A stretch of 63,938 bases of DNA, filler included, from an uncultured Ignavibacteriales bacterium (GTDB lineage: Bacteria; Zixibacteria; MSB-5A5; GN15; JAAZOE01), in assembly GCA_964611355.1 (NCBI GenBank). It is 3 parts of 3 records of this genome, joined end to end, with 100 filler letters (N's around TTAATTAATTAA, not from the genome) between each part and the next. Parts side by side here need not be neighbours in the genome. Positions count along the whole stretch, not along the records: positions 24,562 to 48,695 come from CAZSYD010000035.1; 2 more parts are not named here. One strand, written 5' to 3'. A program made the position numbers and the translations under genes. The notes under the pieces are model-generated. The model was not told where the DNA came from. It did not search any database and saw only the letters and a program-made list of their open reading frames with translations. Positions 24,462 through 48,795 of this stretch are shown here, piece after piece. Position 1 is the stretch's first letter; each line of letters opens with the position of its first letter.

Positions 24462-24561
24462 NNNNNNNNNNNNNNNNNNNNNNNNNNNNNNNNNNNNNNN
24501 NNNNNTTAATTAATTAANNNNNNNNNNNNNNNNNNNNNNNNNNNNNNNNNNNNNNNNNNNN
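24462..24561. other. Synthetic contig spacer
   Basis: N44-TTAATTAATTAA-N44; the 12-mer gives stops in all six frames. Confidence 0.97.
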
Positions 24562-26097: not shown

Positions 26098-27443
26098 TGT
26101 ATGACCTGTTACATAAGTTACACATTAAACCGGTTACATAGGTAACACTATTTTTAATTAATTTCATTATTGATATCTTTGTTTTTTCCTTTTAATTTGC
26201 CTTGGCAGGTGAATCAATCGTTTTTCATAGCTGTCGAGTTGTGCCAGCCTGACCGGTCCAAAATAGATATCCCATATTCGATCCGTCTTTTGGCGCAGGC
26301 CGACCAATTCACCGGCCAGAGTCTCACTCAGATAGATATGGCGACTTTTCCATGAGATATCTCCCTGAGACTTAACCGATCGAATAGCCATGTCATCGGG
26401 ATAGGTCATCTCAGAAAGGATCAGGGGATACTCTCGAGACGATGGAATATACAGATCAGCCGGAGTCTGCATATTGATCGATTCGTGTGGACGGTCATGA
26501 TTGTACTCATGTAGAAAGTCAATGAAGGCTTGCTGCTGAGCACGCCAAGTGCGCTTCGGCGGTGATGCTGTCTCTTGTTTCAATGTTCGATGCATTCGCT
26601 CATGACGGCCATTCTGAGCAGGTTTACCCGGCTCGATCCTCTCCGTAACAATCCCCAGTTTCAACCACCAAATAGATAAACGTGAAAGAGAACCGACGGT
26701 CGTCGTCGCAAACGGCGGGCCGTTGTCGGTCCGAATCGCCGTCGGTAGTCCGTATTCCCGGAAAGCCGCCTCAAAAACCGGCTTGGCTGATTCATAACCG
26801 GTAGTCGGCCTTATGGCCTGACAACGAAGCAAATAACGACTATAGTTATCCGTTATTGTTAACGGATCGCAGCGACTACCATCACCGATAGTAAGCCAAC
26901 CTTTGAAATCGGCGCTCCAGACAGCATTGGGAGATTCACAGCCAACAAATGGTTGATCATATGCCCGAGTCTTGCGGCTGCGACGACGGGGAACTGTCAA
27001 TCCGTGGCGGCGAAGAATCTCACCCATAGTACTTACCGATGGCCAATTAACCAAACCATGGTGACGTTGAAGCCACGCACGAAGCTTCTTCGGGCCCCAA
27101 CTCGGATGACTAACGCGAGCCGCCACAATGGCATGACCAATTGACTCTGATATCGCATTGGGATGATGATGGCGAGCCCGACTACGATCACGAAGACCAT
27201 CTACTCCCTCATTAAAATAACGACGAATAATTTTGTAGCCCGTCTTGCGACTGATACCAAACTCGCGACATAATGCGGCCATTGAATACTCTTGTTCCAA
27301 ATAATATACCACAAACTTCATACGCTCTTCCATAGGATAGGTCTCTTTCCACGGCACAATCTTACCTCCTTAGATTATACCGTTATTCTACCTGTTACCT
27401 ATCTGCCCGGTTCAAACTGTTACCTATCTACCCGGTTCATACC
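26098..27443 (-). mobile_element. IS481-family insertion sequence
   Basis: Imperfect terminal inverted repeats (TGTATGACCTGTTACATAAGTTACA... versus reverse complement GGTATGAACCGGGTAGATAGGTAACA...), with tandem 25-bp subrepeats at 27393-27417 and 27418-27442, enclosing the transposase. Confidence 0.85.
26167..27357 (-). CDS. IS481-family DDE transposase
   Basis: MPWKE, LCREFGISRKTGYK HTH, WSADFKG, IRTDNGPPF, QNGRHERMHRTLK, YNHDRPHE; GTG start after AGGAGG. Confidence 0.93.
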   Translation of the reverse strand: MPWKETYPMEERMKFVVYYLEQEYSMAALCREFGISRKTGYKIIRRYFNEGVDGLRDRSRARHHHPNAISESIGHAIVAARVSHPSWGPKKLRAWLQRHHGLVNWPSVSTMGEILRRHGLTVPRRRSRKTRAYDQPFVGCESPNAVWSADFKGWLTIGDGSRCDPLTITDNYSRYLLRCQAIRPTTGYESAKPVFEAAFREYGLPTAIRTDNGPPFATTTVGSLSRLSIWWLKLGIVTERIEPGKPAQNGRHERMHRTLKQETASPPKRTWRAQQQAFIDFLHEYNHDRPHESINMQTPADLYIPSSREYPLILSEMTYPDDMAIRSVKSQGDISWKSRHIYLSETLAGELVGLRQKTDRIWDIYFGPVRLAQLDSYEKRLIHLPRQIKRKKQRYQ

Positions 27444-27755
27444 TGCCAAATAAACAGAAATATCGACGGATAATCCCGTTTTGGCTCCTATATATTTATA
27501 CTTGATAGCAATCTATTCAATATGAACCACAGGCGAATGCCAATTACTAAATTCCATATTATGTGACCGAAAACTCGGGTGTGTATTATCAAAATATGCC
27601 GGAAATTTTTGAACACCGGCGCCAAAATAGTTGATCATGCCCAAAGCAGTTATAGCCCTTGCCACTGTCGTATGTCTGAAACCTGCAAAAATCTTTCTGG
27701 GGAAATAAAGAAAGCGGGTCCGGCCAAATCAGTTTATGCCTTGTCTCTTATAAAC

Positions 27756-30389
27756 TTAGGCCTTATGGTTCGGCATTGATAGAGTGACATCTCTCTCGAA
27801 GCTCGTCAATTCCGTTTCAAGGCGTTTTATTTCCGTTTTCAGCCTGTCGAAAAGGGGATTTGCATCTTCGAAGTTGCTATTGCGGCTCTTGTTCAGAATT
27901 TCCTGAACGGTTGCACTAACGGCGGTGGCTCCCAGGCTGGTCGCAACGCCGATTAGAGTCCTGGCGGCCCTGGTAAGTTCGTCAATGTCGCTGTTCCCGA
28001 TCGCCTGGTCGATTCTTGAGAGATATCTGCCGCTTTCCTCTTCAAATACATCCAGTATTTCAAACAGGAGATCATAGTCGCCGTCCGCGGCCGCCAGCGC
28101 CTTTTCGCGATCGAATATTTTTGCGATTTCGCCTGGCTCGGAATAGGGGGAATCCTTTTTCACCGGGTACTTGTCGATTAAATCGCCAAGACTATCATAA
28201 ATGGCGCCATACCCATTTACCGTACATATATAATCATCCATCCCGACCTGAAGGCATCTTTCGCGGCTTTCTTCACTTTCGTCGGTCGAGATGCCAATGA
28301 TGGGAATATGCCCTATGCCGTTTTTTTCTCCTTCACGAATCGCCCGGACAGCTTCAAACGATCCCGCCGCAGGCACTAACACGTCTATAACAATGGCAGA
28401 GTATTCCGCCGATTCAGCTTTGCCAATAACTTCCGAGCCGTTTGACAGGAGGGCAACGCGATAATTGCGCTTTTCCAGGAGCTTTTTCGCCAGCACCTGC
28501 GTTATTCTGTCCTGCGCCACCAGAAGAAGCATGCCGCCTTCGCCATCATGTAAAGCCTGCGGTGCGGATGTTTCCATTGATGGCTGTCCTCCGTCAGTCT
28601 CCTGCCCGGACGTTTCGGAGGCGTCGTCTTTTTTGCCTGCGGCCTGCCCGATCGCCACGTAAAGCTCTTTTTGCCTGATAGGTTTTTTTACGATGCTTGT
28701 TATGCCAAACTCTTCGAAACGGTCGGTTTCGTCAGCGTTATGCGTAGCGCTTAATAAAATGATGGCTATTTTCTTATGCCAATCATACTCCTGAATTCGT
28801 CTTGCCACCTCAAGGCCGTCCATCTCCGGCATATGGGCATCGAGCAGGATAACGGAGTAGAAAGAATTCTTCTCGGCGGCCATCATCAGCATATCCAGCG
28901 CCTCTTTGCCGCCTGCGGCCAGAGTCGGCTCCCATCCCCAGGTTTCAAGCAATGTCCGAAACATTAACCGGTTGGTGGCGTTGTCATCAACGACCAATGC
29001 TTTCCGCGTGATCGGCTCAGTTGCGTCAGTGCCGATAAGCGGGTAATTCTGCGATCTCTGAATATCCAGCCACAAGGTAAAATGGAATCTGGTTCCCGGT
29101 TTACTTTCATCGGACGGGTTTGCCGGGCTCTCCACCCAGATTTCCCCTCCCATCAGTTCAACCATTTGTTTTGATATGGCCAACCCCAGATCGGTCCTGA
29201 TATCTCCCCGGCCGGGGGAGTCGTCATCCCGGGCAAATCTCGCAAAAACATCGCCCTGTTGATCTTCCGGAAGGCCCGGCCCGGAATTGGCGACACTGAA
29301 GTGAAAGATGGGAAGAAGATGCGACCAGGCCTCAACTTCCGCCCGGACGCTGATTTCGCCCTCAGCAGTTGACTCCAGGGCGTTCTCTAACAGGTTTTCC
29401 AATATCTGACGCAGCCGCCCGGCATCGCCGGCAACGCCATCCGGAACCAGAGGATCGATAAAGGTAATAGCTTCAATGCCGCGGTCGTGAGAGCGCGCGG
29501 CGAAGGAATCGATTACCGAGCCAATAAGTTCGCGCAGGCTGAAATCCGTTTTCTGCTGTTGAAATCGTCCGGCTTCAAAATCGGCATAGTCAATGACGTC
29601 ACCGGCAAACCGGTTTAGACGACCGATTACAGCCTTGATATTATTCAGAAAACTGTTCTGCTCTTCGGTCAAATCAGTCGTCAGGAATTCCTGAGTGGCG
29701 TCGGTTATGGCCTTTATATCAGTATTGATTTCTCTGCCTAAATTCCCGATGAACCCCTTTAAAGCCGCGATTGACTCATCAGCTTTGCTTTTTATCGTTT
29801 TGATTCGCGACGCATAGTTGTAAAAACTGGCTTCATATTCCTTTGCGGCCTGCCTGGCTATTTCGAGATCATTAGTATAGACCTTCAGCCGATCCTCAAC
29901 CTCCCTGCGTTCCACAAACAATCCGATTCCCCGACTGACCATTTCAACCAGATTTTTGTCTTCCCAGAGGAGCACTCCGTCATAACCCTCGGGCCGACCT
30001 TCCGTGTAAAATACTTCAAAAGTCCCCGCCGACTCGCCTGAAACGATGATATCGGCGGCGTGTTTCCATTTGGTTTCCACGATGAAATTGGTCGTCTTGA
30101 ATTCCTTGTCGCCCAGAATGATACGAGCGCAGGTTTCGTCGGGACATTGCCATAACGGGGGAATCAGGTCCAAAATTTCCTGAAGAGCTTCGTCCGATGA
30201 AATGTCTGTTCTCGCGGTTAGTTTCAGCAATTCAAAAATAAAACCAAGCTCTTTGGTATGTTCTCCCGCGTCGTGCAGATATATCTCCAGCGCTTTCTCA
30301 ATGTGTTTACATTGCGCTTCCAATTCCCCAATGGTCTGACGGATTTTCGCCAATTCTTCGGCAGGCTGCATATTTATCCTGTTTGTCAT
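27756..30389 (-). CDS. Cytoplasmic hybrid sensor kinase-like protein (GAF-HisKA-HATPase-REC-REC-Hpt), catalytically degenerate
   Basis: GAF-like IPPLWQCPDETCARI; H-box reads NLGREINT; N-box RLRQILENLLENA; REC1 VVDD...LLDAHMPEMDG...KKP; REC2 degenerate; Hpt reads AARTLIG. Confidence 0.85.
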   Translation of the reverse strand: MTNRINMQPAEELAKIRQTIGELEAQCKHIEKALEIYLHDAGEHTKELGFIFELLKLTARTDISSDEALQEILDLIPPLWQCPDETCARIILGDKEFKTTNFIVETKWKHAADIIVSGESAGTFEVFYTEGRPEGYDGVLLWEDKNLVEMVSRGIGLFVERREVEDRLKVYTNDLEIARQAAKEYEASFYNYASRIKTIKSKADESIAALKGFIGNLGREINTDIKAITDATQEFLTTDLTEEQNSFLNNIKAVIGRLNRFAGDVIDYADFEAGRFQQQKTDFSLRELIGSVIDSFAARSHDRGIEAITFIDPLVPDGVAGDAGRLRQILENLLENALESTAEGEISVRAEVEAWSHLLPIFHFSVANSGPGLPEDQQGDVFARFARDDDSPGRGDIRTDLGLAISKQMVELMGGEIWVESPANPSDESKPGTRFHFTLWLDIQRSQNYPLIGTDATEPITRKALVVDDNATNRLMFRTLLETWGWEPTLAAGGKEALDMLMMAAEKNSFYSVILLDAHMPEMDGLEVARRIQEYDWHKKIAIILLSATHNADETDRFEEFGITSIVKKPIRQKELYVAIGQAAGKKDDASETSGQETDGGQPSMETSAPQALHDGEGGMLLLVAQDRITQVLAKKLLEKRNYRVALLSNGSEVIGKAESAEYSAIVIDVLVPAAGSFEAVRAIREGEKNGIGHIPIIGISTDESEESRERCLQVGMDDYICTVNGYGAIYDSLGDLIDKYPVKKDSPYSEPGEIAKIFDREKALAAADGDYDLLFEILDVFEEESGRYLSRIDQAIGNSDIDELTRAARTLIGVATSLGATAVSATVQEILNKSRNSNFEDANPLFDRLKTEIKRLETELTSFERDVTLSMPNHKA

Positions 30390-30615
30390 CTAACGCGCAG
30401 GCGCCGGATTAACGGTTGTTGCGGATAAAAACCCGGTCTGAATACCAAAGCGCGTTATACCCGATTGAGCCGGAGCAAAACATCTTACCGCCTTATGTAT
30501 CGGCCAAAAACGGCAATTTATGAAATGCCGTTTTCTACTAATCGGTGAGGTCAATCAGATAAGAATATTCCATGAATTTTTGGCGGCGGTGGAGAGTTCG
30601 CGTTATGAGAGAATC

Positions 30616-31587
30616 CTAAGCATGGTTACGCAGTATCAGCTCTTTGGGATTGGGATTAAGATAAGTTTGTCCCGCCAAATGCTCTATCTTGAATTTTCCA
30701 ACATAATGCTTAAGCAGCGTAATCGGCACGATCAACGGCACATACCCCTTACGATAATCCTCGATGTTATCCAAAATATACCTTTTCTCGTCTGCATTTA
30801 GACGATCCCTGGTAAAGTTATAAATATGACGGAGGATAGTGGCGTTTTTTCTTGTGGTCGTCCTGATTTTCAAGGCCTCTATGAACATTGCACCGTACAG
30901 GTTGCGAAATTCAGCCGGCGAGTATTTCCGGATATCAGCCATAAGTTGTTCCATCAGTTTATAATGCCGGGGGCTGTGAGCCCGGATCAGGTACTTGTTG
31001 GCGGTATGAAATTCGGCCGCCTTCCGCCGGTTAAATCTTTCAATAAATAACTTCTGCAGGTTATGATAAGCAAAAACCCGTTCAATAAAGTTTTCCCTGA
31101 TCTTGATATCTTGCAGGCGGTCTTCCTCTTCGATCGGAAGAAGCGGATACCGTTCCATAAGTTTTTTGGCGAACAAACCCACTCCATTCCGGGACAGCGA
31201 GCCGTTGTTTGCGAAGAGTCTGACCCGTTTCATGCCGCAACTGGGCGAGTCCTTTTTCAAAATATAGCCGCTTAATTGTCTTATATCGCGTTTTCGTACC
31301 CGCCTGTCGGAGTAATTATTCATTCGCTTTGTCCAGTCGGCGCCGGTTTTTTCGCCAATCATCCCGGGAGCCTCCGGCGTTCCCGTCAGGTTGACAGCTT
31401 CCCGAGGCACCCCCATGCCGATTTCCCATTCCGGACAGACGGAGACAAATTGAACACATTTGCCCAAAACGTCGGTTATATAACGGTCGCGCTTATGCCC
31501 GCCGTCATAGCGCACTTTCATCCCAAGCAAACAGGAACTAACGCCAACCCTCACAGGCGTTCCTTGTTTTGATCTTTTCAACGCCAT
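30616..31587 (-). CDS. DUF523 (TudS, 2-thiouracil desulfidase-like) + DUF1722 (YbgA) fusion
   Basis: VSSCLLG..VRYDGGHK, CPE..IGMGVPRE, KKDSPSCG, FHTANKY, YLNPNPKEL.LRNH. Confidence 0.9.
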   Translation of the reverse strand: MALKRSKQGTPVRVGVSSCLLGMKVRYDGGHKRDRYITDVLGKCVQFVSVCPEWEIGMGVPREAVNLTGTPEAPGMIGEKTGADWTKRMNNYSDRRVRKRDIRQLSGYILKKDSPSCGMKRVRLFANNGSLSRNGVGLFAKKLMERYPLLPIEEEDRLQDIKIRENFIERVFAYHNLQKLFIERFNRRKAAEFHTANKYLIRAHSPRHYKLMEQLMADIRKYSPAEFRNLYGAMFIEALKIRTTTRKNATILRHIYNFTRDRLNADEKRYILDNIEDYRKGYVPLIVPITLLKHYVGKFKIEHLAGQTYLNPNPKELILRNHA

Positions 31588-31753
31588 AATAAATTCAAAA
31601 AATCTTTGCTTATTATAATCCGCGTCGCAACCTGTTACCGGAATCGCTTTACGTTATTGATGTTTGCCTGTTGTTACTTTTTTAATGAAATCTATCGCCT
31701 ATCAATCCTGATATCCTCTTTGCCTGATGGCCAAATACTCTGCCGGGCAATTA

Positions 31754-33031
31754 TCAAAACTTGCTTATTATTATCCCGCTGTACGGTATGTTCAACCTGT
31801 CCAGAGCGAGAAAAAAATGTCCCAGGCTCAGGATATATCGGTTCGATTTGACCGCAATATCCTCTCGCACTGTCGGCGTTACGTTGCTGTAAAAATAACG
31901 GCCCGAGAGGGCGTTGACCATGACAATATGCGCCATCGAATCGCGTTTAACAAAAAAGGCTCCGGCTGTCAGTACCGGTTCGCCCGGAAACAGAAAGGCA
32001 TGGTTGGCGCGCGGAACTTTTTGGCCGGTTTTGACTTCAATCAATCTCTCCTCTTCAGGTAAAAGTTCCCGCCCGAAACGAATCCTGCCCGACAGCCCGA
32101 CGGCAAAGAAGTATTCACCCGGTTTCAGAGTATCAAACGCGTCGGCTGTCAGCGTTTTAATTAGGCGGACGTCTCCTCCACGCTCGACAAATTCCCGGTA
32201 CTCACGCTGCAACATCGGTGCTTCCTTATTCGGGTAAGCTTCCCCGGGAGCGTTGTCCTTTAGCGCCTGCAACAGTGAATCGGTCGGCACAAAGGATAAA
32301 ATGCCCCTGGCGAACTCGGTGTTTATACCGGCATGGCGGCGCAGGAAATTCCTGTAATTCTCATAACCGGGAATAACGTAATCGGGTGGTTTACAGTAGA
32401 TATCATATCTTTCCGGCAGGGCGAAATCGGCCGCCTTCGGTTCAGGGATAAATTCCCACTTCCGATCGATGGCGTAGAAATGATCGGAAAGCGCCCGGGC
32501 GTAAAGATCAAGTTTCTCGGGCGGGATAGTCGGGTCAGCTTTTTTCAGGATATTCTGCGCCCAGATCAGCCAGCGGGTTTGTTGAACGGTGTTAAACTGA
32601 ACCAGGTAACTTTTTCCCTGCCACCGGAAACGAACAAAAGCGCCCCTGTACCCGGCCGGTCTGCCATCGCAATCACTGGTCAGACAGCGGTCGATTTGCG
32701 TTATTGTAATTGTAGAATCCTTTTGGACGGCATCCAAGGTCCGGCCCAAAGACTCATGATCCGGACAGATGACTCGAACCGCGTGATACAAATCGCTGGC
32801 GTTGTCCGGGCCACTAAAAAGAGGGTCGAGCGGCCCCGTAACGAGATAATCTCCATTCTCCGGAAAGATGGTATCGAGAAGCTGCCGGAGCGGCACGTCC
32901 TGCGCCTCAATAAGCAAATCGTAGGCTGATCCGACAATCGGATCGGTTCTGCCTGTCGAATCGGCGAGTGTTGAACACGCCGGAACAAACAGTAACAAGA
33001 AAAGGGGAACCGTTCGCTTAAAACAAGTCAT
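31754..33031 (-). CDS. Exported hypothetical protein: degenerate RelA/SpoT-like domain plus a C-terminal domain with an H..GEPVxxAG..NxxSGxY motif
   Basis: Signal peptide; DLYHAVRVIC, RPAGYRGAF, VQFNTVQQTRWLIWAQNILKK; C-terminal NHAFLFPGEPVLTAGAF...VNALSGRY. Confidence 0.65.
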   Translation of the reverse strand: MTCFKRTVPLFLLLFVPACSTLADSTGRTDPIVGSAYDLLIEAQDVPLRQLLDTIFPENGDYLVTGPLDPLFSGPDNASDLYHAVRVICPDHESLGRTLDAVQKDSTITITQIDRCLTSDCDGRPAGYRGAFVRFRWQGKSYLVQFNTVQQTRWLIWAQNILKKADPTIPPEKLDLYARALSDHFYAIDRKWEFIPEPKAADFALPERYDIYCKPPDYVIPGYENYRNFLRRHAGINTEFARGILSFVPTDSLLQALKDNAPGEAYPNKEAPMLQREYREFVERGGDVRLIKTLTADAFDTLKPGEYFFAVGLSGRIRFGRELLPEEERLIEVKTGQKVPRANHAFLFPGEPVLTAGAFFVKRDSMAHIVMVNALSGRYFYSNVTPTVREDIAVKSNRYILSLGHFFLALDRLNIPYSGIIISKF

Positions 33032-33842
33032 CTCTTCCCGCGTAAATCACAAGGTGAAGATTTCGTCGTTTTCCTCCCGGGGACCATCAATGATGACACC
33101 CATCTCGCATTGTACGTCGAGCCTCCCGCCATGCGGTATAGGTTTTTCAGAGGAATGGATACACTAAATATATCAGGTGCATATTATCCTGCGCATTTCT
33201 TATGTAATCAACTATTTTTTTGTTCTGCTGATTCTATGGTCGGGATATGCGTTATACAGCTACAAGATAAATATTGACCGATCTATATTACAAACCAACA
33301 AATCCGGGTTTTCCTCCAGGTTGTCCGCGATGCAAACCCCGACTAAATGACCGTCTGGACAGCTATATGCAATTCAATAAACGACAATAACTTATAGGCT
33401 AAATGATAGGCGTTGTACGGCGGAATAATTCCTCCCGATTTACAGGTTATTGAGGTGACGGTACTAATGAGGAATCATCATTACTACTTGCCGGCACAAT
33501 ACGGAACTATATTTATCCTGTTATAATTGTTCAATTTATATACAGCTCAAACTCTTAAGCCTTGATAAGCTTCGACCGAATAATCAGATAACAAGCGTGT
33601 TCACAAGGGGAGCATAACCGATGGAGCGCATATCCAAGGTTGCGCAGCATTTATGACCGACAATCCGTTCAGTTGAATCGTGAAACGCCACTTGCGGATC
33701 CAATCGAGCTTGATCGGTTACAGCCATCGTCTGTCAAAGACCAGTAACCAAAGGGTACGCGTCAACGAGAGGTCGGATATGACGGCATGTGTGGGAATAG
33801 GAGACACTTGATATTTCATAAACCTTCGAAAGGAGTCTGAAG

Positions 33843-35027
33843 ATGAAACGAATTCATCTGCTGATCGCTTTTCTCCTGATGGCTTTTATCTGCTTTGCGG
33901 TAACTGCTACCGCGGCTGATAAGCCTTCAATTAAAATCAAACCGTACGGCTTTTTCAAGCTTGACGGCATGTACGATCAGAACGAAACCAACGGCAACGT
34001 GGCCAAATACGTCGGCCGTCAAAACGGGGATGACAGCGACGAGCAATTCAACATGACCCCGAAGCACACCCGGTTGGGCCTGAAAATGACCGGTGAGAAC
34101 ATTCGGGACGCCGCGGTAAACGGCAAAGTCGAAGTTGACTTCTACGGTTCCGATGGGCCGGAAAACGCCGCCCTCATCCGTCTGCGTCATGCCTACTTTA
34201 CCGTCCGATCGGCCGAATTTCAGCTTCTGGCTGGCCAGACCTGGGATCTAATCTCGCCACTTAATCCGTCGATGCTTAACGCCAGTCCGATTTTTGGCGC
34301 GGGAAACATAGGGATGCGGCGTCCGCAAGTAAGACTATCGTACACCGCCCAACCGAACAATCAAACTGACATTACACTTGCCGCCGGAATTTTCCGCAAT
34401 ATGGGCAATGACAACACCCCGACGCTTACCCTGTCTCTGGCTGATGGTGAAGACGCCACCGACGGTTCGGATGACGGCACCGACGCCGGAATTCCTTCAA
34501 TACAGGGTATGCTCGAGCTGCGTCACGAATTCAACCCCGGAACCTCACTTCAAGTGGGCGCTTCCGGCCTATGGGGTCAAATGAAGGCCGAAAGCCAACT
34601 GAGCACCAATACCGAGACCTATGAGAATTGGGGTGCGGTCGGTCATCTTAAGTTATCGCTGGCCTCAGGTTTTGCGATCATGGGTGAAGGCTTTACCGGC
34701 CGGAATCTTGGCAGTTATGCCGGCGGTATCTCGCAGGCAAGCACCCTGGATGGTGTCGATTGCGTCGGCGGCTGGGGATCGCTCCAGTTCCAACCTTCAG
34801 ACCAGGTGCAATTCAATGCCGGCGGCGGAATGGACGACCCGAAGGATGAAGACCTCAGCAATGGCGACAAGGGAAAGAACCAGTGCATCTTCGGCAATAT
34901 CAAATACAACGTTGTGCCGCTGGTAACCCTGGGATTGGAAGTCTCTCACTGGCGGACGGAGTATCTTGGTGACGCTGATCCGAGCGACAATCTCCGCGTC
35001 CAGACATCATTTATCCTGAACTTCTAA
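33843..35027 (+). CDS. Outer-membrane porin (DcaP-like)
   Basis: Signal peptide, KPYGFFKLDGMYD, TRLGL, VEVDFYG, RLRHAY, LLAGQTW, RRPQVR, terminal F; AAGGAG RBS. Confidence 0.8.
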   Translation: MKRIHLLIAFLLMAFICFAVTATAADKPSIKIKPYGFFKLDGMYDQNETNGNVAKYVGRQNGDDSDEQFNMTPKHTRLGLKMTGENIRDAAVNGKVEVDFYGSDGPENAALIRLRHAYFTVRSAEFQLLAGQTWDLISPLNPSMLNASPIFGAGNIGMRRPQVRLSYTAQPNNQTDITLAAGIFRNMGNDNTPTLTLSLADGEDATDGSDDGTDAGIPSIQGMLELRHEFNPGTSLQVGASGLWGQMKAESQLSTNTETYENWGAVGHLKLSLASGFAIMGEGFTGRNLGSYAGGISQASTLDGVDCVGGWGSLQFQPSDQVQFNAGGGMDDPKDEDLSNGDKGKNQCIFGNIKYNVVPLVTLGLEVSHWRTEYLGDADPSDNLRVQTSFILNF

Positions 35028-35059
35028 AATCAGGTTTCTGTCTGAGAATAGTTTTGGCC

Positions 35060-35095
35060 AATCACCGTGCCGGCCTTTCTACCGGCACGGTGATT
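35060..35095 (+). terminator. Hairpin terminator after the porin
   Basis: 14-bp inverted repeat AATCACCGTGCCGG...CCGGCACGGTGATT. Confidence 0.65.
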
Positions 35096-35134
35096 TCGGC
35101 CTGATACGTCTTAATATTAGTACAATTACCCAAT

Positions 35135-35166
35135 AAAAAGCCGGGCATTCTTCCCGAATGCCCGGC
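35135..35166 (-). terminator. Terminator of the TonB receptor/PorV operon
   Basis: GCCGGGCATTC...GAATGCCCGGC with a T5 tail on the minus strand. Confidence 0.7.
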
Positions 35167-35193
35167 CAATTCGCTTCATGAGAATCTCAGGCC

Positions 35194-36183
35194 TTAGAAC
35201 TCCACCTTCACGGTAAAGAACTGGTTGGCGTCAAAGACTTCAGTATCCATCCAGGAATACTCGAAGGCGAGTTTGGTGCCGCCAAAATCATACTTGACGC
35301 CACCACCAACCGTGAAACCGTAAAGGTAGCTCTCCTGATCCGCGTAGTTATAGCCGACACGGATTGAGTACAGCCCGTCGTAAACATACTCGGCACCGCC
35401 CTGCCACACATCTTGGGAATAGTTGTTCGAGACGAAATTCCCGGTAATGGTGGCCAGGTTGGGACCCATATCATACGCGTTCCAGGCCATACCTGCGTTA
35501 AACGAGCTTGGCAGGTCGAATTTGAGAGCTTCCGGCGAAGCCTGGCGTTCGCCAAGCGTCCGTTCAAAGCCTTTGCCGCTGAACTTCATCTCCGGACCAT
35601 AATTTCTGATCGCCAGTCCGAGAGAAAAGCCCTGCCAGCCCGGGTCATAGATAAAGCCAACGTCAAATGCTACACCGGTCGCCGACACTTCGAAGATTTT
35701 TTCGTGTATGAACTTACCGGTCACGCCAAACGACACCCGGTTGGTCATAATCCGCGAATATGCCACCGATATGACCGAAAGAGTCGGACTGAATATGCGA
35801 CCCGTTCCGTCCGGATACTCGTTGGTGGTTTCTTCCATGTCGCCGATGGAGATAATCTTGGCCGACGCCGCAATAGTACCGAAATCTTCGATACGGGTGG
35901 CAACTCCGGCGAAATTGACGTCGATATCAGCCAAGTACGGCTGATGCGAAAACATCGCCTCGGTACCGGCCAGGCTGGCCAGTCCGGCCGGATTCCAGTA
36001 GATGGCCTCCACGCCGGTAACATTGGCGACCACCGCGCCGCCCAGGGCGATGCCGCGCGCCCCGACCGGGATACGCAATTCCTGGGCGCCGGCGGTTCCG
36101 ATCCGTCGTTCGTTCCCTGCGTAAACCGAGGTCAGGCTTACGGCAAGGAGAACCATCAATATGATTGCAATTTTATGCTTCAT
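35194..36183 (-). CDS. PorV/PorQ-family (FadL-like) outer-membrane beta-barrel
   Basis: GTAGAQELRIPVGARGIALGGA, AIYWNPAGLA, AFDVGFIY, terminal VEF. Confidence 0.85.
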   Translation of the reverse strand: MKHKIAIILMVLLAVSLTSVYAGNERRIGTAGAQELRIPVGARGIALGGAVVANVTGVEAIYWNPAGLASLAGTEAMFSHQPYLADIDVNFAGVATRIEDFGTIAASAKIISIGDMEETTNEYPDGTGRIFSPTLSVISVAYSRIMTNRVSFGVTGKFIHEKIFEVSATGVAFDVGFIYDPGWQGFSLGLAIRNYGPEMKFSGKGFERTLGERQASPEALKFDLPSSFNAGMAWNAYDMGPNLATITGNFVSNNYSQDVWQGGAEYVYDGLYSIRVGYNYADQESYLYGFTVGGGVKYDFGGTKLAFEYSWMDTEVFDANQFFTVKVEF

Positions 36184-36202
36184 TGTTCCTTTCCTTCCTT
36201 GC

Positions 36203-39200
36203 TTAATATACCTTAAGTACCTCTACCTCGGTGAATATAGCCATCTTTCCTATCTTGGTGCCGAAACCGGGAGCCTCCACGACATAGATGTAAATTCCCG
36301 ATGCCACCGGCAACCCGTTCTCGGTACGCGTATCCCAGGTCGCGATTGATGTGCTCGGATCGTTTTTCTCGATCGTCCTTATCAGATCGCCACCGAGGTT
36401 GTAGATGGTGATTGTACAATTGTCCGGGAGATGCTGAAACTTCAACTGGTAATTCCCCGGCGCAGGGTCATACGTACCGTACAGGTAGAACGGGTTGGGC
36501 ACCACGTTGATCCGATCAAGATCACTTTCGGTTGTGGTGTAGGTTGGGTCTGTCACCGTAAAATAGAACGTATCGGAAACCGTATTAACGTAGTTCGGGA
36601 CATAAAGCCACGTATCTCCCGGAGTCGGCTTACCGCTTGTGCCACCTCTCGCTGTCAGCCAACCTGCATACAGGCAGTCAAAGTCATCATTATCGTTGAA
36701 GCAGGCGCCGTCGACTGCGTAATTCGCAATTTCGGTGGCCGAATAATCGGATTTCATAATGAAGAAATACTCACGGCCGCCAAGGGAGTTGGAGCTAGCG
36801 TCGATATTCACCTGCTCTCCCGGGTTCCAAACCGAATCTGCGTCCTGACCGTCGTTTTCGGTCGGATCATAGGATTCTACAAATGCGAAATTGATTTGCC
36901 GTTCAGGTGTTGCCGAAACGTCCCATACTGTAATATCCTGCTGGAAGAATCCTTCGTAACCATACCCCTTATCGCGCCGGTAGCAATAAGCATACTGGCC
37001 GGTACCGTCTTCAACCCAGCGGAACTCTATATCGACCAGATCCGAAGCCAATAGGGTGGAACCGAAAAACTCACCCAGCAAACCAACCCCGCCGAAGAAG
37101 GAAGAACCGCCCCAGTCTACAGCGGTCAGAGATCTTGTCTCACCAGTCCAGGTATAGTAATTTAATTCCAGTGGCGGACCGGATTGATTGAACAGGACAC
37201 CTTCAATCAGTTCAAACGTGGTGTCGCCCGATTGATCCCACTGCCAGCTCAGGATGGTATCGCCGTCGGTTATGTCAATCAGGTGCCAGCCTATATTATA
37301 GTTGATGATCGTCGCCTCGTCGGTGTCACCGGGATAGGCCGGATCAAATATATACTCAATGTGAAGATCGGTGGTATCTGTGAATGAGACCTGGTAGGTA
37401 TGGTTGTCAAACAGATAGGAGTCGATTGTAAACGGTAACACAAAACCATCCGAAATCCCGACATGGGTAACTTGAATCGTATCGGCGAAGTTGTAACCAA
37501 GCTCGGTTCCCGCAAGGGGCGACTGCGGGGTAGCGGTCACAATTGCCTTGGACGTCTGGGTCTTTGGGGTTCCGGCCTCGAAGTAGCTATAGGCTTCGAC
37601 CTTGTAATAATACGCCGTGGCGTTATTCAGCCGGCCGCCCAAGATGTAATCCTCATCGATGACTATATCATGAAGAACACCCTGATTAGAACCATCCTTG
37701 ACAAGGCGGCTTTCCAGAGCGCCAGTAATCGGGTCAAAGACCTCATCAAGGATATCCTCGACCGTGTTTACAACGTCAAAGTTGATGACCTGCGTCCAAG
37801 GGCCTGACGGGCTTTCACCCTGCCATACAGCATAACCCTCAAACGGATAAGAACCCGGATTCTCCTGAGAAATAGTCGTCCAGGAAAGCGTGATTCTATT
37901 ATCATCTTCCGCCACTGTTACTACCGGTACCGCCGGAGCCTCTAAAACCTCAAAATCGTTTTCATAGGTAGCCTGAGCGAATTTGTCATAGTACTTCATT
38001 ACTGAGATCGAGGATTTCCGGTCAATGCCGTCGCCGACAATGATCGCCGCCAGAATCTCAGTTGAGTCACCCGGGGCAAAGGTGACCGGCCCGGTCGAAA
38101 GCATAAATCGACGATCTGCTGGAGTATCATCCAGGTCACCCGTGCCCTTCACCGGGTCACCTGAAAAGAAGTATTTCGTCGGAATACCGTTGTAGGTATA
38201 AGGGCTGCCATCCCTATTCAGACCCCTCATATAGTTGTAAGATTCCTGAGCATTGTCAGGATCGGTACCGTTGATGTACTTGTCAAATGAAACCATCCCC
38301 ATATTGCGGTAACCTGCCCAAATGGTATCCCACATTTTGGCAGTGTCGGCATCGCTGCCCGTGGAATGCAGCGGCCCCTGGAAGAAGTCATAGCCGACTG
38401 AAGGCGGGGCCGATCCGTATTGCTGGTCAGCGTTGGTGGCGTTGTACACAAAGCCGACCGACAGCGTGGTGTCACAGCCAACCAGATCGTCGCCGGAGCC
38501 GCCTAAATCGGGATCCGACCAGAGTGAGAAATAGCAATCCTCAAGGAGGTTACTACCCTTGTTGAATATCTGAAGCTTGATGAAAATGATATTTCCCAGC
38601 GGGTCTTCACGATCCCAGGCAAACGTGGTCTGCTGCACTTCGATATCAAGCGGGTCAGTATCGCCCGAGGCATTATCGTGCTGGACTGGATCGGCGTCGT
38701 TATAGACCGCCCATAACATCTGGTCGCCGATCATTTTTGGATTTCCCTGATCGTCCACGGGCGCCCCGTGCGCAACCGGCCAGTTGGTGTAGTCGTCATT
38801 CGGATTATCCGCCAGGCTGTCTTTATACAGCTTATAGACTTTGAAAGTCGGATCGTCAGGCAGGAATGAGCCGTCCTGCATCGGGCCCGGCACATATTCA
38901 TCGCTGTATTCGGCAATGGTTACGCGGACTCCGCCGTCAACCGTGGCCCCGACCCACAATCCGGAGGCATACAGACACAAGTTGTCCATAAGGCCGCTTT
39001 CGATATCCGCCACCGTGTTATAGGGATAGAATGTACCGGCATCGTACCCGAAATAATCGGACAGGTCGCGGCAGAAGTTGCCGTGATTTGTAACGAACAT
39101 CAATATGTTGTTGGCATCGATGAACGTTGTATTGTCTATACTCGCCACCCCTGAAGGCGTTGCAGGTTTCTTGAACGGCTCTTGCGGTGGCGCCGCTACC

Positions 39201-39268
39201 GACGGCAAGGCCAATAGCAATGCCATAAGTAGCGCCAAAAGAGTTTTTTTCATTTTCATTACCCTCAT
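36203..39268 (-). CDS. Large exported acidic protein with C-terminal sorting/FlgD-Ig-like domain
   Basis: Signal peptide; C-terminal INVVPNPF...TITIYNLGGDLIRTI...WDTRTENGLPVASGIYIYVV...KIGK. Confidence 0.8.
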   Translation of the reverse strand: MRVMKMKKTLLALLMALLLALPSVAAPPQEPFKKPATPSGVASIDNTTFIDANNILMFVTNHGNFCRDLSDYFGYDAGTFYPYNTVADIESGLMDNLCLYASGLWVGATVDGGVRVTIAEYSDEYVPGPMQDGSFLPDDPTFKVYKLYKDSLADNPNDDYTNWPVAHGAPVDDQGNPKMIGDQMLWAVYNDADPVQHDNASGDTDPLDIEVQQTTFAWDREDPLGNIIFIKLQIFNKGSNLLEDCYFSLWSDPDLGGSGDDLVGCDTTLSVGFVYNATNADQQYGSAPPSVGYDFFQGPLHSTGSDADTAKMWDTIWAGYRNMGMVSFDKYINGTDPDNAQESYNYMRGLNRDGSPYTYNGIPTKYFFSGDPVKGTGDLDDTPADRRFMLSTGPVTFAPGDSTEILAAIIVGDGIDRKSSISVMKYYDKFAQATYENDFEVLEAPAVPVVTVAEDDNRITLSWTTISQENPGSYPFEGYAVWQGESPSGPWTQVINFDVVNTVEDILDEVFDPITGALESRLVKDGSNQGVLHDIVIDEDYILGGRLNNATAYYYKVEAYSYFEAGTPKTQTSKAIVTATPQSPLAGTELGYNFADTIQVTHVGISDGFVLPFTIDSYLFDNHTYQVSFTDTTDLHIEYIFDPAYPGDTDEATIINYNIGWHLIDITDGDTILSWQWDQSGDTTFELIEGVLFNQSGPPLELNYYTWTGETRSLTAVDWGGSSFFGGVGLLGEFFGSTLLASDLVDIEFRWVEDGTGQYAYCYRRDKGYGYEGFFQQDITVWDVSATPERQINFAFVESYDPTENDGQDADSVWNPGEQVNIDASSNSLGGREYFFIMKSDYSATEIANYAVDGACFNDNDDFDCLYAGWLTARGGTSGKPTPGDTWLYVPNYVNTVSDTFYFTVTDPTYTTTESDLDRINVVPNPFYLYGTYDPAPGNYQLKFQHLPDNCTITIYNLGGDLIRTIEKNDPSTSIATWDTRTENGLPVASGIYIYVVEAPGFGTKIGKMAIFTEVEVLKVY

Positions 39269-39275
39269 CCTTGGT

Positions 39276-42149
39276 TTAGAATGACATCCTCAAACCGACT
39301 AAAATCATGCGCGGTTTGCCGTAGTTCTTCGGATTATTCTCTTTGAGGCGATACTGTTTAACCGCATCCGGGCCGTAGACTTCCGTCCAGGTTTGTCCTT
39401 CGGCGGTTTCCATCCAGCCCGTTTTGTCGCCCTTGCCGGTACCTTCGTAAACATTGAAGACGTTCTCGTTCTCCAGCAGGTTCTGGACCCAGATATAAGG
39501 AGTAAAGGTGAACTGGGCGTAGTTGAACTTCCGCTCAGCCTTCAGGTCGATGCTAAGCGACCACGGCATATTGGACGAGTTGACACGACCGGTCGGCTCC
39601 TGCGAGACTGCAATTCCTTCTCTGGCGGCATCGTACTTGTTGGTCGGCGTGTAGGGAACGCCGCTGGACGCCTGGATCAGGACATTTATGCCCATATCCT
39701 CGAACGGATAAACGTCGCCGATCTTCGGCCCTTCGCTCTTCGTGGTACGGAAGTCGATGACACTGTTTATGCTGTGCCGCTGATCGTAATCGAGCGGATT
39801 GGTGATCTTGGGCGGGCGTTCGGGGGCCTTCCAGGCAACATTATACTGGGTCTCGGCATAGGAACCGGTTCCTGTCGCCCACGAGAGAGTATAATTAAGA
39901 TTCAGGCTGATATTGTGCATCCGCCGCATGGTCAGGTTAAGGTCAATACCCTTAATTGTACCGTAGTCGGTGTTGGCATAATAATCGTATGAGTAAGGCT
40001 GGGCTGGCTGGTGGAATATCTGGGTCTGATCCTGGACATCCTTATAGTAAGCCGTAATCCCAAGGGCGGTGTTGTCGCCGAGCTGATGAGTAATACCCGC
40101 CTCGTACTGGGTGACCTTTTCCGGCTCCAGGTTGGGGCTGGGGAACGGCAGATACGACCCGGCGCCGATTCTGGCCGCCCAAAAATCATATCCTAAAAAC
40201 AGGTTGGTCAGATTGGGCCGCTGGAAAAACTTGCCGTAGTTGATATGAAACTGGGCCTTATCGGAAATCGGGAAAGCGACACCTAAACGAGGCGAAATTC
40301 GAGTAAAGGTTTTACTGTCTTCCAGATCGCCGGGGTCAAGGGTATCGACTCCTGTGACATTGGCCGGATCAAGCGGATTCAACGGGTCCTTAACGCTGAG
40401 GGTATTATAGTCAAAGAAATCAAAACGCAGACCCGCATTAATAATCATACCGCGCCATTCAAACCGATCCTGAATATAGACACCAAGATTGATCGGGTGC
40501 TTGGTCTCGTTTTTGTAGTCTTCGTTATCCGATTCGTTCCCGGTGCTGTCGAAGCCGAATCGATTTACGGTGCGGATCTCGTAACCGTCAACCGGCGTCC
40601 AGTGCTCGAAATAGCGAAGCGTATGGCGCTGGAAATCAAAGCCTAACTTGGTGGTATGGTGACTGAACATCTGCTTGTTGAAGTCGCCCTTGAACCCGAT
40701 ATACGATGATTTCCGGTGAATAATCTGGTCGTAGTAAGATTCGGCGTAACCGATCGTATCGCCGGTTAAAGTATCGGTGATCGGCTCCATCCATTCGCGG
40801 AACAGGTCCAGATCATCCCACTCCGGGTTGTTCACCGGTAAATAATCACGCACATAGGTGTCGATATCGTCAAATAACTCGCCATCCCCACGGACTCGCT
40901 CGGTCAGGAAATAAGAAGCGCTAAGGTTATAGAATGTCTCCGGATCAAGGGCGTGCGTGATCTTGGCGTTGACGCCGAGATTTTTATCCTCTGTGCGAGG
41001 ACAATGCCGGTAGTCGTACAGGTAGCCGTGGAAATACTGACGCCATATGTCTAATGAGTAATTTCCATTCACGGCCAGCTTCAGATTCGGATTGACTTCG
41101 AAATCCAGCTTTCCCTGAGCCGACCAGCCGCTCAGCCAGTTGCTCGGCAACCGGTGGGAATAGCCGTAGGGCATTTCTCCGTATTTGTCATGAAGAGTGT
41201 CGATGCCGTACTCTTCATAAATCTCTTTGGTTTTTACCGACGGGCTGCGGTCGGCCAGCCAGCGGCGCTCGCCGGAAAAGAAGAAATACGATTTCTCCAG
41301 ATTCGGAATCGGTCCGCTGACGTCGCCGGAATAGTAATTGTGATCCCAGCAGTCCATCCCCGGCTTATTGTCGGTCAAAATATCAAGGTTGCCGTGGTAT
41401 TCGTCGGTACCGGAGTTTGTAACCACGTTGACGATACCGGAAGCAACGTGACCGTACTCGGCCGAGAAAACACCCGAGGTAACGGTAACTTCCTTGATGG
41501 CGTTGTTGGCCAGGGTGGTGGTGGAGTTTCCGGTTAGCGGATCCTGCTGAGAGAAGCCGTCAACATAGTAGGCCACCTCGGAAGGACGTCCGCCGCGGAG
41601 GTTGATTTCCGCGTTAAGAGCCGTGGATTCACGGTTACCCCGCTGGCGAACATCAACGTTGGTTTTCATTCTGACCACGCTGTTTTGCAGGCCGATCACA
41701 TCCTCAAAGCCGCGAACCGGCATGGCCTGAATCTCGTCAGCCGTGATGATGTTGATCGAAGTGGTCTTATCCTTGATGACCAGCGGTCTTTCGGCTCTGA
41801 CCGTAATAACCTTGCCGAGATCGGTAACCTCGGAAGTCAACGACATATCCTGGAACGTTGCCAGATCGGCCGAAACGTGGACGTTGGAAACCTCCACCGT
41901 GGCGTATCCCACCGAACTGAAAACCAGCGTATATGTTTCCGTAGGAAGATTAAGGATAATGTACTTCCCGTCCACGTCGGTTTTAGCTCCCATGGTAGTA
42001 CCCTGGATACTCACCGATACGCCGACGAGGGCCTCCCCGGTTTTGGCGTCGACCACCGTACCGGTAATCTCACCGGTAACTGCGCCAAAAACCGGTCCGG
42101 CAAGCAGGCATGCCATTAGGCACGCTACTATAAAGACTTTTTGTTTCAT
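39276..42149 (-). CDS. TonB-dependent receptor with CarboxypepD_reg N-terminal domain
   Basis: GEITGTVVDAKTGEALVGVSV, plug INLRGGR...SAEYG..ASGIVNVVT, PNLEPEK..QYEAG, terminal PRMILVGLRMSF; start after AAGGAGG. Confidence 0.92.
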   Translation of the reverse strand: MKQKVFIVACLMACLLAGPVFGAVTGEITGTVVDAKTGEALVGVSVSIQGTTMGAKTDVDGKYIILNLPTETYTLVFSSVGYATVEVSNVHVSADLATFQDMSLTSEVTDLGKVITVRAERPLVIKDKTTSINIITADEIQAMPVRGFEDVIGLQNSVVRMKTNVDVRQRGNRESTALNAEINLRGGRPSEVAYYVDGFSQQDPLTGNSTTTLANNAIKEVTVTSGVFSAEYGHVASGIVNVVTNSGTDEYHGNLDILTDNKPGMDCWDHNYYSGDVSGPIPNLEKSYFFFSGERRWLADRSPSVKTKEIYEEYGIDTLHDKYGEMPYGYSHRLPSNWLSGWSAQGKLDFEVNPNLKLAVNGNYSLDIWRQYFHGYLYDYRHCPRTEDKNLGVNAKITHALDPETFYNLSASYFLTERVRGDGELFDDIDTYVRDYLPVNNPEWDDLDLFREWMEPITDTLTGDTIGYAESYYDQIIHRKSSYIGFKGDFNKQMFSHHTTKLGFDFQRHTLRYFEHWTPVDGYEIRTVNRFGFDSTGNESDNEDYKNETKHPINLGVYIQDRFEWRGMIINAGLRFDFFDYNTLSVKDPLNPLDPANVTGVDTLDPGDLEDSKTFTRISPRLGVAFPISDKAQFHINYGKFFQRPNLTNLFLGYDFWAARIGAGSYLPFPSPNLEPEKVTQYEAGITHQLGDNTALGITAYYKDVQDQTQIFHQPAQPYSYDYYANTDYGTIKGIDLNLTMRRMHNISLNLNYTLSWATGTGSYAETQYNVAWKAPERPPKITNPLDYDQRHSINSVIDFRTTKSEGPKIGDVYPFEDMGINVLIQASSGVPYTPTNKYDAAREGIAVSQEPTGRVNSSNMPWSLSIDLKAERKFNYAQFTFTPYIWVQNLLENENVFNVYEGTGKGDKTGWMETAEGQTWTEVYGPDAVKQYRLKENNPKNYGKPRMILVGLRMSF

Positions 42150-42345
42150 GCTGTGATTTTCCTCCTTTGTCCTTGGTATTGACAAGTTAATTCCCTTTAC
42201 TTTCACGTTAACTTTCTTCCCATAAGCACACTCCTTTTATTTTAGTTATCCTATGCGCTCCTTCCTATATTTGGATATTATCTTTTCAGGCTGTTTTTCC
42301 AATTCCCTTTGTGTAACGCCTATGGATACACTACTCCTTTGCACC
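42150..42345 (-). promoter_or_regulatory. GGA-rich 5' leader of the TonB receptor operon
   Basis: 12 GGA trinucleotides on the sense (minus) strand versus 2 on the plus strand; TTGACA on the minus strand at about 42371-42376. Confidence 0.45.
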
Positions 42346-48695: not shown

Positions 48696-48795
48696 NNNNN
48701 NNNNNNNNNNNNNNNNNNNNNNNNNNNNNNNNNNNNNNNTTAATTAATTAANNNNNNNNNNNNNNNNNNNNNNNNNNNNNNNNNNNNNNNNNNNN
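48696..48795. other. Synthetic contig spacer
   Basis: N44-TTAATTAATTAA-N44. Confidence 0.97.

Follow-up and report, generated by a model that had tools for sequence, protein, structure and literature searches.

We describe a gene in a 63,938-nucleotide stretch of DNA (here called the window) from an uncultured bacterium of the phylum Zixibacteria (GenBank assembly GCA_964611355.1). Its 425-residue product carries an export signal, an N-terminal domain with the homology and predicted fold of RelA/SpoT homologue (RSH) alarmone synthetases, from which the catalytic residues have been lost, and a strongly conserved C-terminal domain. The family is confined to Zixibacteria. We tentatively favor, as a possible explanation, that the protein is a periplasmic pseudo-synthetase that would bind a phosphorylated ligand in an envelope phosphate-transfer pathway. 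Alarmone synthetases have long been taken as cytoplasmic. The family would be the first exported RSH in which the synthetase fold is kept among members 24 to 86% identical, across “hundreds of millions of base changes,” and the catalytic residues are gone.

The family, its export signal, and its RelA/SpoT domain

Searches of an indexed set of 5.8 billion proteins gave 239 relatives at E ≤ 0.001; those among the matches listed are about 420 amino acids (aa) long and all named “hypothetical protein,” and their named sources are Zixibacteria or FCB-group metagenome-assembled genomes (MAGs). Of 1.84 billion cluster representatives searched exhaustively with phmmer, 94 match at E ≤ 0.001, 60 of these at E ≤ 1e-30. 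A further 41 loci, with titles naming Zixibacteria or unclassified MAGs, came from a pattern scan that took one genome for each species. By profile search, the gene is present in 59 of the 285 genomes of the phylum, including 43 of the 198 high-quality ones, mostly as a single copy and with a patchy distribution by family (f9, 6/6; f20, 14/15; f2, 21/108). The window's genome has one copy and also encodes a separate canonical long Rel; the protein is not that genome's housekeeping Rel enzyme. The first-pass annotation of this DNA had presented the architecture as unfamiliar; it is uncatalogued, in that nothing reached the curated cutoff in Pfam and NCBIfam scans of the protein and of family members. 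Single-sequence searches of Pfam, NCBIfam, and PDB sequences gave nothing useful, and the PADLOC and PHROGs libraries had no match to the protein. The sole Pfam line for the single protein, DUF4350 (E 0.043), occurred in just 1 of 78 members and was dropped.

All motifs quoted in the first-pass annotation are found in the translation: DLYHAVRVIC (residues 80 to 89), RPAGYRGAF (124 to 132), and VNALSGRY (372 to 379), as are the further strings YLVQFNTVQQTRWLIWAQNILKK (142 to 164), EYFFAVGLSGRIRFG (306 to 320), and NHAFLFPGEPVLTAGAF (343 to 359). An AlphaFold2 model of the whole protein has a predicted local distance difference test score (pLDDT) of 93.8 and a predicted template modeling score (pTM) of 0.91, and the two domains are predicted to form one compact, rigid unit.

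In 73 of the 78 aligned family members, 12 or more residues precede the conserved body, and the scan for signals was limited to these. A hydrophobic core (12-residue Kyte-Doolittle mean of ≥1.8) is found in 72 of the 73; it is short, as a rule with K/R ahead of it and small residues after it. In the window protein, K5-R6 precedes the core VPLFLLLFVPA, and the signal stretch is modeled as a lone helix with pLDDT of 55 to 71. The Sec-type signal peptide proposed at first pass is therefore kept by homologues across the family. The same annotation had raised possible Cys lipidation at VPAC; because a lipobox-like Cys, defined by a loose pattern, occurs in only 7 of the 73 sequences and the closest relative reads VPVC, we read the window's VPAC as incidental and lipidation as no family trait. 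Cleavage by signal peptidase I is likely between TLA and DS, and the sequence indicates that the protein is probably Sec-exported and periplasmic.

The profile of the 78-member family matches Bacillus subtilis SAS2/YwaC (PDB 6fgk) at E 6.6e-4 over profile positions 81 to 183, and the next RSH chain in this search is FaRel2, at E 0.51. Two phmmer matches (E 2e-4 and 5.5e-4) fall in the Pfam RelA_SpoT domains of P0204 and P0207, which are the nearest relatives of the N-terminal domain with an intact E..IRT / GYR..H signature. P0204 is a 2,530-aa polyvalent protein with LPD1, HNH, and zinc-ribbon domains and the RelA_SpoT domain at its C terminus. P0207, of 260 aa, is over the Pfam RelA_SpoT cutoff (39.6 versus 27 bits) and also matches the PADLOC candidate PDC-S33 (6.3e-7); when the family was compared with it by hhalign, the probability was 97.9% and E was 6.2e-13 over 113 columns. 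A Foldseek search of the PDB gave 29 matches at E ≤ 0.001. Among the matches listed, all are RSH synthetases, with CapRel first (7ztb, 1.0e-6), and they include RelP, SAS1, SAS2, SpoT, and the exported SaEAS. In two structure searches, small alarmone synthetases (SASs) rank at the top, and the matches span model residues 31 to 192.

Judged from these alignments, the RelA/SpoT resemblance is beyond chance. The homology to the synthetase domain is evident at the profile level, and the modeled domain has the synthetase three-dimensional fold; together, the profile, hhalign, and Foldseek matches uphold the RSH call made at first pass. The nearest relatives suggest that the Zixibacteria family arose from a mobile-element or defense-type RSH. 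The earlier proposal that the protein was built from two toxin-derived folds thus retains its N-terminal half, for which a mobile-element or toxin-type origin fits, but such support is confined to that domain.

Catalytic residues and the C-terminal domain

The active site can be compared with that of SaRelP, in which R78 and R112 stack on the ATP adenine, the basic and Ser residues R78/K80/S84/K88/R91 of β1/α2 lie at the ATP, with K80, S84, K88, and R91 holding the phosphates, and Mg2+ is bound by D107 and E174 (PMC5794853). SaEAS is inactivated by D121A (PMC12691689). The first-pass annotation had noted that RxKxxxS is absent and that the catalytic Glu and His are replaced, and the comparison of 78 sequences confirms this across the family. 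The motif RxKxxxS is absent family-wide. At positions 62 to 66, assigned to the β1 strand by the order of secondary structure, K/R occurs in 0 to 3 members per position, and the consensus reads G-Y-x-V-T-G-P. The Mg2+-binding Asp that precedes the conserved Arg by five residues (D107 in SaRelP, D121 in SaEAS) has no counterpart in the family: the eight positions before R86 (78 to 85) are acidic in at most 16 of the 78 members at any position, and the column of D80, singled out at first pass, holds P in 11, D in 10, and R in 10. The Glu of E-I-Q-I-R-T aligns to L143 in two independent alignments, with D/E there in 4 of 78, and the His of GYRxxH (position 132; F132 in the window protein) is found in none.

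Other parts of the ancestral site survive. R86, the counterpart of the adenine-stacking R112 of SaRelP, is kept in 72 of the 78 members, and the acceptor-nucleotide loop G-Y-R-x-x-H is partly kept, without its His (G127, 66; Y/F128, 63; R129, 58), and is followed by G130 (69). T148 (68), R153 (76), and W157 (76) are also retained, and Q151 is among the surviving residues. On the evidence of these columns, the fold of the N-terminal domain is kept and its synthetase chemistry is probably lost; with the ATP-phosphate and Mg2+ residues gone, synthesis of (p)ppGpp or (p)ppApp along the known route would be precluded. It is very improbable that the protein is instead an active exported alarmone synthetase (EAS) with noncanonical catalytic residues. 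Such an enzyme would share the signal peptide and RSH fold reported for SaEAS and VpEAS (PMC12691689) and could draw on two moderately conserved acids nearby, D69 (52/78) and D91 (55/78), but neither lies at a canonical position, and a quarter to a third of the members lack them. Moreover, the basic β1/α2 phosphate binders, the Mg-binding Asp, and the Mg-binding Glu are all missing family-wide, and the protein, unlike EASs, has an extra domain that is larger and better conserved.

Beyond the RSH fold, mean column identity is 68% over residues 195 to 425 (34 sequences) versus 51% for the whole protein (36 sequences), and by this measure the C-terminal part is the most conserved of the protein. 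The connecting segment (residues 193 to 250) is modeled mostly without regular secondary structure at pLDDT of ≥90, and its PPDYVIxGYxNY motif is strongly conserved (P216, Y218 to I220, G222, Y223, N225, Y226). The domain that follows carries the motifs GEYFFAV..G.IRFGRE, PRANHAFLFPGEPVLTAGAFF, NAQSGHYFYSN (ALSGRY in the window protein), LGHFF, and a C-terminal ..SK[FLMY]. In this half, Arg, Lys, His, Tyr, Ser, and Asn make up most of the invariant residues, and Q275, Y307, R318, S376, Y379, H405, and the penultimate K424 are kept even at 24 to 30% identity. H344 (57/78) and H378 (55/78) mark the main clade only.

Folded alone, the C-terminal domain reaches a pLDDT of 86.7 and a pTM of 0.83, and the model has no convincing known fold. 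Foldseek returned nothing at E ≤ 0.001 for the isolated domain in PDB or BFVD; three unnamed phage proteins in BFVD scored 1.2e-3 to 6.2e-3. Its profile had 61 matches at E ≤ 0.01 in the 5.8-billion-protein index, all of them family members or fragments, and a best E of 0.14 against PDB sequences, none plausible. The nearest ESM Atlas clusters, which serve as a lead only, are unnamed hypothetical proteins of 121 to 161 aa (scores, 0.93 to 0.94). A resemblance to the middle (“head”) domain of polyphosphate kinase 1 and to PHPT1 (1xdo, 2o8r, and 2nmm) has weak scores, and SCOP groups the polyphosphate kinase middle domain and PHPT1 as “PHP14-like,” so that these three weak matches would amount to one signal.

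The first-pass annotation had assigned this part to an ADP-ribosyltransferase (ART) fold on a motif resemblance to Rhs toxin tips and plant IQM proteins, and a fold check of the two domains separately came out for the N-terminal part, which matches the RelA/SpoT synthetase fold, but not for the C-terminal one, since no ART chain is among the fold matches listed for the isolated domain. The motif link was not reproduced: neither Rhs tips nor IQM proteins appear among the 94 phmmer representatives at E ≤ 0.001 or in the profile searches. A secreted toxin-like protein with an ART fold related to Rhs tips is therefore extremely improbable. Besides the motif resemblance, what speaks for it is that the nearest RSH relatives include a mobile-element polyvalent protein; the gene, however, is mostly single-copy among housekeeping-type envelope genes, has no PADLOC or PHROGs match, and has no immunity-like neighbor. 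The search for larger carriers was also negative, with the C-terminal domain in none of 723 candidates of 745 to 2,125 aa at E ≤ 10, and this absence of carriers longer than 744 aa is weak evidence.

A true enzyme with its active site in the C-terminal domain, such as a His/Arg phosphatase or phosphotransferase whose substrate, a nucleotide or pyrophosphate, is presented by what remains of the RSH cleft, is somewhat unlikely. The densest invariant polar residues are found in this domain (R318, R341, N343, H344, S376, H378, Y379, S382, N383, H405, and K424), and the operon partners in relatives are a PAP2 phosphatase and a kinase-like lipoprotein. However, H344 is replaced in 21 of the 78 members and H378 in 23, including the window protein at 378, and Pfam, NCBIfam, and PDB sequence searches gave no link to any phosphatase family. 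The middle domain of polyphosphate kinase is not known to be the catalytic part of that enzyme, which also counts against an enzymatic C-terminal domain.

Gene neighborhood in relatives and in the window

Related loci share a recurrent gene order: an Omp85-family barrel, a lipoprotein of about 580 aa, the gene itself, and a PAP2 phosphatase; on the other strand there are usually a response regulator, a PAS histidine kinase, and two cyclic nucleotide monophosphate-binding proteins. Of the 35 related loci in which the gene was picked up by the calling of open reading frames (ORFs), 21 have the lipoprotein gene immediately before it (gaps of −23 to +54 nucleotides [nt]) and 20 have the PAP2 gene immediately after it (−16 to +44 nt); contig ends cut several loci, so that these counts are lower bounds. 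The Omp85-family gene is two genes upstream in 12. Across the 285 genomes of the phylum, 40 have both the gene and the lipoprotein, 19 the gene only, 32 the lipoprotein only, and 194 neither.

The lipoprotein family, found in 72 of the 285 genomes (for example, at L003:4243-5985 on the plus strand; 16 further loci were aligned), has no Pfam, NCBIfam, or PDB sequence match. Its invariant motifs IIKFD, NH.D.KDQN, and LLDFGS.FG can be read as a protein-kinase-like catalytic loop and DFG motif, and its Atlas feature matches, at 0.81 to 0.83, are clusters of HipA_2, Fam20C, LepB_N, and PI3_PI4_kinase, which are leads only. Even by itself, a secreted lipoprotein with a kinase fold would be unusual.

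These partners, together with the residues kept, shape the reading that we prefer. The N-terminal domain would descend from a RelA/SpoT-type nucleotide pyrophosphokinase and keep the adenine-stacking R86, the G-[YF]-R-G acceptor-loop motif, and R153/W157; in the model, the remnant cleft packs rigidly against the conserved C-terminal α/β domain. The basic, aromatic, and His residues kept in both halves (R86, R153, Q275, Y307, R318, S376, Y379, H405, and K424) may form one putative pocket that binds an extracytoplasmic phosphorylated ligand without the ancestral catalysis. Candidate ligands are a nucleotide or alarmone, pyrophosphate or polyphosphate, and a lipid pyrophosphate head group. The protein would thus act as a binding or presenting subunit, a pseudo-synthetase, which in most relatives may belong to one envelope pathway with a cotranscribed kinase-like lipoprotein and PAP2 phosphatase and in the window's genome would act alone. 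A more far-reaching version, which we consider rather unlikely, is that Zixibacteria have an extracytoplasmic phosphoryl or pyrophosphoryl pathway made of a kinase-fold lipoprotein, a pseudo-alarmone-synthetase with a new His/Arg domain, and PAP2, all exported, that senses or processes a phosphorylated molecule (extracellular nucleotides or alarmones, polyphosphate, or lipid pyrophosphate), and that the C-terminal domain is an unseen fold with a ligand-binding or catalytic site of its own.

Several observations weigh against the pseudo-synthetase reading. The window protein does not match Pfam RelA_SpoT (PF04607) at E ≤ 1, and RelA_SpoT, the sole Pfam family that recurs among members, matches just 3 of 78, all below the 27-bit cutoff (best E, 0.0082); an hhalign comparison of the family with the single sequence of the long Rel encoded in the window's genome gave nothing (probability, 0.1%). 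The window protein has R for the main-clade H378 and L for Q375, and its 86% identical relative P0002 has R344 in place of H344, substitutions that could reflect a relaxed function in the window lineage. The window's genome, which is 96% complete, has no homologue of the kinase-like lipoprotein and no orthologue of the operon's PAP2, two other PAP2 genes being present. The case for a pathway therefore comes from relatives, and among the 59 genomes that carry the gene, 19 are without the lipoprotein. Because kindred genomes are not independent samples, the co-occurrence table overstates linkage.

It is quite unlikely that the protein is instead a structural or assembly factor of the envelope, for example, an adaptor or chaperone for the Omp85-family barrel and the lipoprotein, with the RSH fold as a mere scaffold and no phosphate chemistry. 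The loss of catalytic residues, the Omp85-family gene in 12 related loci, and the window neighbors (a DcaP-like porin, a PorV-like protein, and a TonB-dependent receptor) would all fit such a role, but one would not expect a scaffold to retain the adenine-stacking Arg, the G-[YF]-R-G loop, and invariant Arg/Lys/His/Tyr residues, and the gene is intact in the 19 of 59 genomes without the lipoprotein.

One relative with a complete chromosome (G076) has, besides its full-length copy, an extra copy of the C-terminal domain only (L040:6001-6468; G076:C1:418610-419077), which is 65% identical to residues 270 to 425 and directly precedes the PAP2 gene. In the same genome, the kinase-like lipoprotein gene at G076:C1:1187056-1188768 contains an in-frame TAA. 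In some lineages the operon seems to be coming apart.

Features of the locus are collected in Table 1. The window consists of three contigs joined by N runs at 24462-24561 and 48696-48795, each junction being two 44-base runs around a 12-base spacer, and genes across the junctions are not genome neighbors; the gene lies on the middle contig (24562-48695). Metagenome contigs from other samples are 100% identical over 31596-37724 and 99.98% identical over 26712-32240, and the local gene order is thus no assembly artifact. The metagenome scan found just these two loci, both encoding a 100% identical protein.

Upstream of the gene lies a block of outer-membrane genes (33843-42206), separated from it by a presumed promoter region that is unusually long for a noncoding stretch. 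Three σ70-like sites lie upstream of the gene on the minus strand, at 33534/33533 and 33211; promoter-like sites in the scanned region (5 versus 3.4 ± 2.0 in shuffles) are not above chance, and neither are terminator-like sites above the shuffled expectation. An Rfam scan of the upstream gap gave no match. Downstream, the fusion of TudS (2-thiouracil desulfurase) and DUF1722 is unrelated to our finding by present evidence; beyond it are a hybrid histidine kinase and then an IS481-type transposase, which may be related to the loss of the usual operon context here. No small immunity-like gene adjoins the gene in the window or in related loci, as the first-pass annotation had observed for the window.

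Table 1. Features of the gene and its surroundings, in window positions
Feature	Position	Strand	Remarks
Whole ORF	31754..33031	minus	425 aa, with the stop codon at 31754-31756; begins with ATG and is free of internal stops
Signal peptide, residues 1-23	32963..33031	minus	Hydrophobic-core scan; low-pLDDT lone helix in model
RelA/SpoT (small alarmone synthetase) fold domain, residues ~31-192, catalytically degenerate	32456..32941	minus	Profile and fold matches; catalytic columns lost
Connecting segment, residues 193-250	32282..32455	minus	Conservation in 36 sequences; secondary structure, pLDDT ≥90
C-terminal α/β domain, residues 251-425	31757..32281	minus	Conservation; fold and sequence searches
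811-bp noncoding gap between the gene and the divergent DcaP-like porin gene	33032..33842	.	Starts no ORF of ≥60 aa
TudS/DUF1722 fusion, 323 aa	30616-31587	minus	166 nt downstream of the gene
IS481-family transposase (rve, LZ_Tnp_IS481, HTH)	26167-27357	minus	4.4 kb downstream of the gene
DcaP-like porin, divergent	33843-35027	plus
PorV-like protein	35194-36183	minus
1,021-aa protein, C-terminal FlgD_ig domain	36203-39268	minus
SusC-like TonB-dependent receptor	39276-42206	minus

Relation to known alarmone synthetases

A literature search turned up no account of an RSH that is exported or degenerate in this manner. The synthetase fold is joined here to a more conserved domain without a recognized fold, and real novelty is most likely to lie in this domain and in the kinase-like lipoprotein. 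The operon partners in relatives point to periplasmic phosphate chemistry in an uncultured phylum, in a compartment where ATP-dependent processes are not expected. For the RSH field, the family would offer a natural pseudoenzyme to compare with active EASs and with toxic SASs (toxSASs). The protein is most probably not a toxin, and nothing suggests a toxin or medical role; the stakes are those of basic biology.

The premise of the first-pass annotation, that RelA/SpoT enzymes are cytoplasmic unless they are delivered toxins, is out of date, since Sec-exported alarmone synthetases were described in 2025, namely, SaEAS of Streptomyces albidoflavus (PDB 8vx3) and the periplasmic VpEAS/RelV of Vibrio (Ahmad et al., mBio 2025; PMC12691689). 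Export of alarmone synthetases is itself not new; a degenerate exported variant with an extra domain would be. EASs are the closest known kind, sharing the signal peptide and the RSH fold with our family. However, they are very active and are inactivated by one Asp-to-Ala change (PMC12691689), whereas in our family that Asp has no counterpart and neither the Mg-binding Glu nor the basic ATP-phosphate binders are conserved; EASs in turn lack its conserved 230-residue extension. Zixibacteria are not mentioned in the main text of the EAS survey (PMC12691689).

The SASs RelP/SAS2 and RelQ/SAS1 (6fgk, 6ewz, 5dec, and 5ded) are cytoplasmic, homotetrameric, and catalytically complete. The family protein, in contrast, is exported and carries a second domain; it is without a conserved Asp ahead of R86, and it has L143 where the Mg-binding Glu would be and F132 where the His would be. 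CapRel and the toxSASs (7ztb and 9erv; FaRel2, 8pu1/8pu3; Tas1, 6ox6) provide the top Foldseek match. ToxSASs are toxins, either cytoplasmic or injected; their active sites are intact, and they are paired with an antitoxin or immunity protein. None of these features applies to the family protein, and the C-terminal domain of CapRel is unrelated to it in sequence, with no match in PDB sequence and profile searches. The nearest architectural analogy is nevertheless CapRel, which is reportedly a single chain whose C-terminal domain folds back on the synthetase domain.

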